From NCBI GenBank assembly GCA_021683455.1, contig GCA_021683455.1_3051.1: a stretch of 64,000 nt of DNA. The stretch is one strand, 5' to 3'. The notes beneath the pieces were generated by a model. The model did not search any database and was not told where the DNA came from. It saw only the letters and a list, made by a program, of their open reading frames with translations. A program made the position numbers and the translations under genes. This document shows, one piece after another, positions 71 through 42,119 of the stretch. Position 1 is the first letter of the stretch. Each line of letters opens with the position of its first letter. The stretch comes from a phage.

Positions 71-101
71 AAAAAGCCCCAACCTTTTGGTCGGGACTAA
101 G
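71..101 (-). terminator. Minus-strand hairpin plus T-run after the CTS-protein gene; near-identical copy at 626..656
   Basis: Reverse complement reads cccgacc-AAAA-ggttggg followed by gcttttt; the ~31-nt element recurs at 626..656. Confidence 0.55.
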
Positions 102-105
102 AATG

Positions 106-579
106 TTATTTGATTTGTTTAGCAGACCAAATGCGGTCTTTAATAATTTTTTGGATGTCTTCAACATACTCTAGGTCATGAGCATGTGGGTTATCTTTAA
201 AGCTATGAGCACGAGCTAGCTTTTGGCCTTCAGTTTTGATTACTAAAAGCTCTTTAAGGATAGCTTCATATTTGGAGATAATTCCTTTAACGATATTTTT
301 TTCTTGTGCGACTTTAGGATCTGCTTTAGGAGCAGGTTTACCCGAAGCCTTTGCAAAAGCAGCGCCAGTAGCAACTAAACTTTTCCAGGCCATACTAACT
401 GCATTTCCCGTAAATCCTTCCGCTTTCATGTCGCGTGCGAACTGAAATCGCGATTCATCAGAAGCATCTTTGTAAGAATATTTACCCGCTGCAATGGCTG
501 CTTTTGCGACAGCTTGAATTTCGGTGCTAGATGCTTCATTTAACACCGCTTCATTTAAAAATTGAGTATATGATTTCAT
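106..579 (-). CDS. Internal head protein-like protein with N-terminal capsid targeting sequence (157 aa)
   Basis: N-terminus MKSYTQFLNE resembles the T4 IP capsid targeting sequence (IPI here starts MKTYQEF) with an L-x-E prohead-protease site; AGGAAA SD; late promoter upstream. Confidence 0.6.
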   Translation of the reverse strand: MKSYTQFLNEAVLNEASSTEIQAVAKAAIAAGKYSYKDASDESRFQFARDMKAEGFTGNAVSMAWKSLVATGAAFAKASGKPAPKADPKVAQEKNIVKGIISKYEAILKELLVIKTEGQKLARAHSFKDNPHAHDLEYVEDIQKIIKDRIWSAKQIK

Positions 580-615
580 CTTATTTCCTGTTTTAATTCG
601 TGGTTTTAATATACT

Positions 616-39255: not shown

Positions 39256-39324
39256 GTTATCGAGTTGGTGCCATTATATACATCATTTTCTGATCGTGTT
39301 TTGGATGCTTTCAAAATGAAAAAA

Positions 39325-39345
39325 GGGCCGAAGCCCCTTTCGATT
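39325..39345 (-). terminator. Intrinsic terminator after hoc (minus strand)
   Basis: Minus strand GC hairpin (ggggc-ttcg-gccc) followed by TTTTTTC. Confidence 0.55.
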
Positions 39346-40762
39346 ATGGATAAGTATAGATGATACCAGTTTCTAAAGCAGTTTTATGGATGATGTATCC
39401 ATTACGTGATTCTTGAACATCAACTTCTGGATAATCTTTCATCATCTTCTGAAGCGTATAACGATGCAAGTAGTACTTACTATCTGGATCATCAGTTTTC
39501 CAATCTTTACCTTCTTCTGTCATTTTTTGGATTTCATCCATAACCCACCAACCGCACCAGATGTAAGCTGAAGTACGGTGTGGAAGAGGATGAACATAAG
39601 GCAATTCACCTTCTGGTTCCGGAGCAACTTTATCAGTTACCTGAACTTGACCCGTCGTTTTAACTGTTTTGCTATCATAATCAGTAGCAGTAACAGTTGC
39701 CGTAACTTCAATAGTTTGACTTCCAATAGATGAGGTATCAACGGTATATACATTAGTTGACCCTTCTGCAGGAGAAGAATCTTTCTTCCATGAATATTCA
39801 ATTTGCGCTTCTTCTGGAGCACCAGTGACATTAGCGGTAAATGTAGCTGAAGCATCTTGCTGAACGTTAATAGAAGGAGGAGTCAATGTAACCTGTGGAT
39901 TCATTGTCTTCTTATTAACTGTTAATGATACTTCATTAGAAGTAACTTCCTTTTCATTGTAATTTTCTGCTGTTACTTGGGCTACGCATTTAATTCTTTT
40001 TACTCCACTTGTAGTTGGAGTATAGCTAAATGTAGAGTTAGTTTCTCCACCAACTTGAGAATCATCTACATACCATTTATATGTAGCAGACGCTCCATCA
40101 GGTTGAGAAGCTAAGGCAGCAGTAAATTGAACTGGGGTTCCAATTACTCCTGCTGGAGGACTATTAGGAGTTACTGCCAAAGTAGTTGTCTGTGTCTTTT
40201 TATTAACAGTCAGTGATACTTCATTCGAAGTAACGGTTTTTTCATCATAATTTGTCGCGGTTACTTGAGCTACACACTTGATTTTTTTAACTCCGCTGGC
40301 GGCAGGAGTGTAATTAAATGTAGCAGAAGTCGCTTCGTCTACAGGAGAATCGTCAACGTACCATTGATACGTAGCAGATGCACCTGATGGCTGCGAAGCT
40401 AAGGCAGCAGTAAATTTAACAGCTGTTCCGATTACTCCAGCAGCGGGACTATTGGGAGTTACTGCCAATGTAGTTGTCTGAGTTTTATTTTTAACCGTTA
40501 TAGTAGTTGATGCTTGAGCTGTTTCAGGACTACTATCTGCAACTTGGTTTGTTGCAACTACCTTAATAGTCTTTTGACCGGCAGGTCCTTTTAACGTATA
40601 ATCAAAAGTTGCAGACGTTTCTTCCTGCGGTGCATCGTCAACAGTCCAAGCATAGGTAATAGGTCCATCTCCAGTTTGACCACTGGGCGTAGCAGTAAAC
40701 TGCTGAGTCTGATCTATAACTCCAGCAGGTGTTTTAGGAGTTATATCAACTGTAAAAGCCAT
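39344..40762 (-). CDS. hoc: Hoc, highly immunogenic outer capsid protein with an extra tandem Ig-like domain (472 aa)
   Basis: Ig-like repeat modules; two adjacent ~96-aa modules near-identical (NKKTQTTTLAVTPNSP..); T4 Hoc is 376 aa. Confidence 0.85.
   Translation of the reverse strand: MAFTVDITPKTPAGVIDQTQQFTATPSGQTGDGPITYAWTVDDAPQEETSATFDYTLKGPAGQKTIKVVATNQVADSSPETAQASTTITVKNKTQTTTLAVTPNSPAAGVIGTAVKFTAALASQPSGASATYQWYVDDSPVDEATSATFNYTPAASGVKKIKCVAQVTATNYDEKTVTSNEVSLTVNKKTQTTTLAVTPNSPPAGVIGTPVQFTAALASQPDGASATYKWYVDDSQVGGETNSTFSYTPTTSGVKRIKCVAQVTAENYNEKEVTSNEVSLTVNKKTMNPQVTLTPPSINVQQDASATFTANVTGAPEEAQIEYSWKKDSSPAEGSTNVYTVDTSSIGSQTIEVTATVTATDYDSKTVKTTGQVQVTDKVAPEPEGELPYVHPLPHRTSAYIWCGWWVMDEIQKMTEEGKDWKTDDPDSKYYLHRYTLQKMMKDYPEVDVQESRNGYIIHKTALETGIIYTYP
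39910..40485 (-). repeat. Tandem direct duplication (~2 x 288 bp) inside hoc encoding duplicated Ig-like domains
   Basis: Protein residues ~93..188 and ~189..284 are near-identical; the DNA copies are visibly similar. Confidence 0.7.
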
Positions 40763-41501: not shown

Positions 41502-42119
41502 ATGTACCACTTTGTATATGAAACAACAAATCTAATAAATGGTAAAAAGTATATAGGAAAACACTCTACTGATGACTTGAATGATGGTTACCTTGGTTCC
41601 GGTAAGGCAATTCAGCAGGCTATAAAGAAATATGGTGAAAACAATTTCTCTAGAACAATACTAAAAGAGTTTAAAACTTCTGAAGAAGCGTACATGTATG
41701 AAGAAGAAATTATAACTCCTGAACTAATAAAAAGCAAAAATTATTATAATATGAAACCTGGTGGAATTGGTGGAATTGTTATGACTACAGAGGTTATAAC
41801 AAAGATGAAAGAATCTTCCGCTAAAAGATTTGAAAACTCACCAGGCACGGTATTAGGTAAAACTTGTTACACTAATGGAACTAAAAATATTTTTATTAAA
41901 CCTGGAGAACTTGTTCCAGAAGGATTTGTAAAAGGGATGGTTCATCCTAATAGAAAGTCCAGAAAAGGATGTAAAGTCAAACCGACTACCACAGGAACTT
42001 TTTGGGTCAATAATGGCGCAATAAATAAATTAATACAACCAGACGGTATTATTCCCGACGGATTTATTAAAGGTCGTCTCATGAAAAGAGATTCTAAAGG
42101 CAAATTTAGTAAGGCATAA
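41502..42119 (+). mobile_element. segE: GIY-YIG homing endonuclease SegE (205 aa)
   Basis: GIY-YIG module (HFVYETTNLINGKKYIGKHS..GYLGSG); location between inh and uvsW as T4 segE. Confidence 0.8.

Follow-up and report, generated by a model that had tools for sequence, protein, structure and literature searches.

Genomic context and features of the hoc locus

The window, by which we mean the whole 64,000-nt stretch of phage DNA analyzed here, carries a hoc gene on its minus strand. In the open reading frame (ORF) listing, the coding sequence (CDS) runs from ATG to stop at 39344..40762 and specifies 472 amino acids (aa). Among solved structures, T4 Hoc, the highly immunogenic outer capsid protein (376 aa; PDB entries 5VF3 chain Z, 8T1X, and others), was the best and only match to the product (E = 5e-217), which bears out the proposal of an earlier note on this DNA that the ORF is a Hoc ortholog of 472 aa against 376 aa in T4. 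The gene order rnlB-24.2-24.3-hoc-inh-segE-uvsW is as in T4, judged from the T4 annotation and from the Pfam-labelled neighbors of hoc in the metagenomic contig L001 (see below), with hoc holding the same position, between inh and 24.3/24.2/rnlB, in both genomes. The 24-kb surroundings of hoc are ~96% identical to phages KMB39, PST, and T6, which identifies the source, on sequence grounds, as a T6/PST-like Tequatrovirus. The features of the locus are as follows:

39320..39341, minus strand: terminator-like hairpin and T-run directly 3′ of the hoc stop codon (consensus scan, pattern match only)
39344..39622, minus strand: C-terminal capsid-binding domain (aa 381-472) and stop codon; nearly identical to T4 Hoc 285-376
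39623..39910, minus strand: Ig-like domain 3 (D3, aa 285-380); Pfam Ig_3/I-set hit spanning aa 289-367; 88% identical to T4 D3 in aa sequence; beta-sandwich in the AlphaFold2 (AF2) model
39911..40198, minus strand: D2 unit B (aa 189-284), corresponding to T4 domain 2 (91% identical in aa sequence)
40199..40486, minus strand: D2 unit A (aa 93-188), "extra" relative to T4; 81% aa identity to T4 D2
40487..40762, minus strand: Ig-like domain 1 (D1, aa 1-92); AF2 beta-sandwich, pLDDT above 90
41502-42119, plus strand: 205-aa GIY-YIG ORF flanked by inh and uvsW, where T4 has the homing endonuclease gene segE

The putative terminator is GC-rich and consists of a 9-pair stem, GAAAGGGGC-TTCG-GCCCTTTTT, followed by the T-run; it was picked up by the consensus scan only. 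An out-of-frame 72-aa ORF (39637..39855) and ORFs antisense to inh were regarded as spurious.

The GIY-YIG ORF at the segE position is present in phages NiC89 and G157lw and absent from the otherwise very similar loci of L001, ESh24, and Sf23. This site thus holds a mobile gene with a presence/absence polymorphism ~750 nt from hoc, and the gene could promote local recombination or co-conversion. The positional comparison of inh with ESh24 and G157lw was left out, as a 3-nt length difference makes it meaningless.

Domain architecture of the 472-aa Hoc

The structure-sequence match placed T4 Hoc residues 1-113 on residues 1-113 of the window protein and T4 residues 93-376 on residues 189-472. 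These blocks mean that the window protein contains exactly one additional 96-aa D2-like module, so that the size difference is accounted for by a single module of ~96 aa, as the note had supposed. The additional unit (A) lies between D1 and the T4-like D2 (unit B). Outside it, over the shared 1131 nt, the window and T4 genes differ at 143 nt. The C-terminal domain is ~97% identical to that of T4 Hoc, with a single substitution over window residues 379-472 in the printed alignment.

Domain prediction agreed with this layout. Pfam recognized PKD (in two stretches) and Ig_3/I-set, and an AF2 model built from 32 homologues folded residues 1-380 into four beta-sandwich domains at a pLDDT above 90. 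In this model the strands of unit B repeat the pattern of those of unit A at a shift of exactly 96 residues. Confidence was low for the C-terminal domain, which was modeled from a shallow alignment; here we used its identity in sequence to the solved domain of T4 in place of the model. In the PDB, the best Foldseek matches of the model were the four-Ig arrays Dscam, Sidekick, and ICAM-5 D1-D4 (E about 1e-13). The window gene is a T4-type hoc ortholog whose product comprises D1, unit A, unit B, D3, and the C-terminal domain.

The two D2 units are diverged paralogs

Self-comparison of hoc revealed a tandem repeat by each approach. Tandem Repeats Finder reported a 288-nt period at 39905-40495 (2.1 copies, 78% matches, score 707), and an ungapped repeat finder returned two 288-nt copies at 77% identity (39905-40192 versus 40193-40480). 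At the protein level, self-matches peaked at an offset of 96, with 113 identities compared to ≤56 at any other offset, and those at offset 96 were restricted to about aa 89-190. The note's tandem paralogs of one Ig-like domain, at residues ~93..188 and ~189..284, are therefore real, the domain concerned being domain 2.

The description of these copies as "near-identical," on the other hand, did not hold. Units A and B share 78 of 96 aa (81%) and 76.4% of their nucleotides, with a longest in-register exact DNA match of 22 nt. Of the 68 differences in 288 nt, 45 fall at third codon positions. By the Nei-Gojobori method (NG86), dN is 0.117 and dS is 1.35, a value that dates the divergence of the units and not necessarily the moment of their tandem joining; YN00 gave no usable values because of saturation, so that the rates are from NG86 only. 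Synonymous sites between A and B are close to saturation, far from the near-identity expected of a recent duplication. Both units have been kept under purifying selection (dN/dS about 0.09). Among the 18 aa differences, 12 map to predicted loops, especially unit positions 50-55, a distribution compatible in the model with two functional, slightly different binding surfaces. Each unit is closer to units of other phages (A, 100%; B, 99%) than to its sister (76%).

Tandem D2 units are common and ordered across T4-like phages

The window hoc gene matched 665 of 50,697 phage records (megablast), the best at only 94.5% identity. In many of these records hoc is 1419 nt long and goes by the label Hoc, PKD-domain protein, or capsid and scaffold protein. 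When the A/B junction was probed with a 200-nt sequence, coverage reached at least 80% in 236 phage records, a rough count that is inflated by a few two-piece matches (e.g., T2); T4 itself covers only 55% of the probe. About a third of deposited Tequatrovirus-type hoc records (~236/665) thus carry a tandem D2. Hoc lengths were also tallied in the best 120 protein clusters from a search of 5.8 billion proteins: 78 clusters were of 376 aa, 29 of 472 aa, and 9 of 567-570 aa (8 of these, 568-570 aa). Some of the 472-aa clusters represent 58-167 member sequences. As this census combines representatives of 90%-identity clusters with megablast coverage, its proportions are rough. Shorter hoc alleles of about 840 nt, with two Ig domains, also exist.

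The five-domain architecture of the window protein recurs in the 472-aa Hoc of Shigella phage Sf23, of Escherichia phages NiC89, ECML-363, JY01, and BECP11, and of many other Tequatrovirus records. The 472-aa, four-Ig Hoc is a common allele, found with annotation in hundreds of T4-like genomes already deposited.

From the best 120 protein clusters plus the window we extracted 167 D2-type units, which fell into three types (A, B, and C) at a distance cut of 17%. Their positions in multiunit alleles, where the 30 alleles of 472 aa are the window and 29 database clusters, were as follows (among the best 120 clusters plus the window):

Type A: first unit in 29/30 alleles of 472 aa and in 8/8 alleles of 568/570 aa
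Type B: second unit in 25/30 alleles of 472 aa and in 8/8 alleles of 568/570 aa
Type C: third unit in 6/8 alleles of 568/570 aa and second unit in 4/30 alleles of 472 aa

Single-unit Hocs of 376 aa among the best 120 clusters carried A in 15 cases, B in 54, and C in 9. Segments of types A, B, and C are often combined as mosaics within single D2 units, that of T4 itself among them. The 568-570-aa Hocs, for instance those of Escherichia phages UGKSEcP1 and UGKSEcP2, share the D2 cassette array and unit order of the window protein but differ in having a third unit, of type C, after B.

The window allele is a mosaic with near-identical one-unit siblings

Unit A of the window is 100% identical at the nucleotide level to the first unit of Sf23, SfPhi01, BECP11, NiC89, ECML-363, and JY01. 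For unit B, nucleotide identity is 99.0% with the only D2 unit of the Shigella phage ESh24 and 97.6% with the unit at the second position in NiC89/Sf23. Nucleotide differences from the window were counted per segment (D1, 276 nt; A, 288 nt; B, 288 nt; D3, 288 nt; C-terminal domain, 279 nt) and are given below in the order D1/A/B/D3/C-terminal domain, with a dash for a missing unit:

NiC89 (472 aa): 58/0/8/7/6
Sf23 (472 aa): 58/0/8/20/4
ESh24 (Shigella phage; 376 aa, single B unit): 1/-/3/1/11
L001 (Logan assembly of SRR22802629; 376 aa, single A unit): 0/7/-/2/8
L002 (independent ENA k141 assembly; 376 aa, single A unit): 0/9/-/2/8

The closest overall relatives of the window backbone, at ~99% nucleotide identity, are thus one-unit siblings, the metagenomic contigs L001 and L002 without B and ESh24 without A. 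In the two independent metagenomic/SRA assemblies (L001:6001-7131 and L002:726-1856), hoc corresponds to the window gene minus B at 98.5% nucleotide identity, and the encoded proteins match the window Hoc without unit B at 375/376 aa (P0057, from L001) and 374/376 aa.

The 472-aa hoc genes of the Sf23/NiC89 type are 93.8-94.5% identical to the window gene overall, and their D1 is 21% diverged: the window D1 has 0-2 mismatches to L001, ESh24, and G157lw, compared to 58/276 to NiC89 and Sf23. A tract of 305 nt (window 40182-40486; cds 277-581, minus strand) is 100% identical to NiC89, and it begins at the first nucleotide of unit A, directly after the diverged D1. The D1/A border is thus a sharp recombination breakpoint relative to NiC89, and the window allele is a different mosaic from those of NiC89 and Sf23.

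A trace of unit loss may be preserved in L001. When its single unit was compared with all 289 in-register A/B hybrids, the best fit (15 versus 17 mismatches) had its crossover within the final ~27 nt, and L001 is B-like at three of the four sites that are diagnostic at the unit's 3′ end. These 3 of 4 sites are suggestive of a loss of B from L001 through crossover in the conserved, NEVSLTVNK-encoding stretch that ends the unit.

Origin of the two-unit array

We favor the reading that the D2 tandem is old and diverged and that its copy number represents a standing polymorphism, which homologous recombination reshuffles, and not the product of a fresh duplication (probability, about 0.85). Because the closest relatives of each unit are found in other genomes and not in its sister unit, the duplication is likely old and the array inherited. 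Likewise, the A-B order, the orthologous units, and the prevalence of the tandem argue that the duplication predates the diversification of these phages. The recent part of the history would then be only the recombinational reshuffling of preexisting units. In the phage population, the D2 region would act as an array of cassettes A, B, and C in fixed order, with one-, two-, and three-unit alleles existing side by side. Homologous recombination between co-infecting T-even phages would interconvert these alleles, units being transferred via crossovers favored at the conserved unit borders and lost by crossover between repeats. The window allele itself would combine an L001/ESh24-type backbone (D1, B, and D3) with a unit A tract from a NiC89/Sf23-type tandem allele; the direction of such single events is inferred, and a gain of A by the window and the loss of a unit by ESh24- or L001-like alleles are both compatible with the sequences. 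A more far-reaching version is possible but tentative: an ordered array of three cassettes, of which the subsets A, B, C, A-B, A-C, and A-B-C sit on nearly identical backbones and are frequently interconverted at unit borders, perhaps promoted by segE. If true, capsid-fiber length and mucin-binding valency would be a rapidly switchable polymorphism at the population level.

The earlier note had interpreted the array as a recent tandem duplication, of which the tandem domain duplication stands and the recency does not. A recent duplication of domain 2 in situ, in the lineage of the window phage, would account for the perfect 288-nt, in-frame, head-to-tail repeat and for the single unit of the closest backbone relatives (L001/L002 and ESh24). 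We nevertheless rejected it as highly improbable, given the substitution divergence of A and B (76% nucleotide identity, near-saturated dS of 1.35), the orthologous units in other phages (A at 100% and B at 97.6-99% identity), and the recurrence of the A-B order in hundreds of genomes. The note had also asked for an assembly error to be excluded, tandem repeats being a classic source of such errors. Assemblers would not confuse units that differ at 68/288 nt and share at most 22 nt of in-register exact sequence, however, and an identical A followed by a near-identical B, with the same junction, occurs in several independently sequenced phages. Some 236 phage records show the tandem as well, the frame is uninterrupted, and the AF2 model has a full Ig fold for each unit. 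A spurious extra unit from misassembly is thus very unlikely, the least probable of the explanations weighed here, and was rejected.

More deserving of consideration, if still improbable, is a recent tandem that arose de novo in a co-infected cell, by unequal or illegitimate crossover of an A-type (L001-like) and a B-type (ESh24-like) allele on the same backbone. Both single-unit "parents" are known, at ~99% nucleotide identity to the matching parts of the window gene. Yet the window unit A matches NiC89/Sf23, in which the tandem already exists, without a single mismatch, compared to 7 mismatches with L001, and the junction that would be needed, between a unit end and the D1 end, offers only a poor homology of ~17 nt. 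The nearly invariant placement of A before B (29/30 and 8/8 alleles among the best 120 clusters plus the window) points to a single origin of the array, and the B-like sites at the 3′ end of the L001 unit (3 of 4) are as expected from loss of B.

Fiber length, mucus binding, and published Hoc variation

T4 Hoc is a 180-Å fiber made up of three domains of the Ig-like type, together with a C-terminal capsid-binding domain (Fokine et al. 2023, PMC10385173). Since the C-terminal domain of the window protein is nearly identical to that of T4, it would be expected to dock at the center of each gp23* hexamer, with the Ig string extending outward, and we infer by analogy with T4 that one Hoc monomer occupies each hexamer center and that the protein would be dispensable for infectivity. 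On the same analogy, a fourth Ig domain should lengthen the ~180-Å fiber by about a quarter. In phage PhiPNJ-9, which has a "variant" Hoc with two Ig domains, Hoc domain 2 recognizes fucose as its ligand and binds MUC2 via S183/L184/T185 within the motif N180-EVSLT185 (Fu et al. 2024, PMC11853027). NEVSLT occurs twice in the window protein, at aa 180-185 (unit A) and aa 276-281 (unit B). By extension from PhiPNJ-9 and T4, weak adherence to mucus or to cell surfaces may differ in reach or valency when a longer fiber carries two copies of the motif. It is plausible from this literature (PMC11853027, PMC10385173) that Ig copy number tunes adherence.

Variation in Ig number is itself already published. 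Hoc homologues such as that of Serratia phage Muldoon document it: the 650 reported ones have from 1 to 10 Ig-like domains in a row, and the Ig domains are highly variable even among close relatives of T4 (PMC10385173). The window therefore adds an example and not a discovery. The two-Ig Hoc of PhiPNJ-9 lacks D3 and has thus lost a different domain than the one that varies in the window array (PMC11853027). We found no open-access paper that specifically describes the 472-aa Tequatrovirus Hoc allele, and a limited search of the open-access literature yielded no description of the ordered A-B(-C) cassette array or of near-isogenic pairs that differ by one unit. The modest novelty lies in this ordered-cassette population structure and in the natural, near-isogenic one- and two-unit alleles. 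Hoc is the best-studied candidate for phage mucus adherence and also serves widely as a display scaffold. Natural alleles that are nearly identical apart from holding one, two, or three D2 units offer material with which to relate Ig copy number to fiber length, mucin binding, and immunogenicity.

Other Hoc variants and irregular records

Gain of an Ig domain was also seen with another domain type. The four-Ig Hocs of Klebsiella phage JIPh_Kp122 (Jiaodavirus; L007:301-1707) and Escherichia phage dhaeg (Dhakavirus; L008:301-1713) have their most similar units at positions 3 and 4, with 78% identity in JIPh_Kp122 and 60% in dhaeg, and these units resemble T4 D3, not D2. Such D3-type duplicates in Jiaodavirus and Dhakavirus indicate that Hoc has gained Ig domains independently more than once.

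Exchange between distant alleles appears to have occurred in P0048, a 567-aa sequence available as protein only, in which a T4-like D1 and an A unit are followed by three domains that match the divergent ES21-type Hoc (L009) at 90-99% identity. Judged from this alignment, P0048 represents domain shuffling between very different hoc alleles.

Several deposited records are irregular. A hoc of Tequatrovirus type (1419 nt, 91% identity) lies in the 32-kb GenBank entry MG010123.1, labelled "Staphylococcus phage SAJK-IND," and this entry is probably mislabelled or contaminated. In the records of vB_EcoM-UFV05/06/09/10/11 (MZ291552.2, OP572230.1, and OP555980-82), one full-length hoc match spans several CDS, annotated as capsid and scaffold protein (twice) and hypothetical protein (twice). 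The match is 1 nt shorter in UFV05/06, and hoc may be frameshifted or split in these five records.
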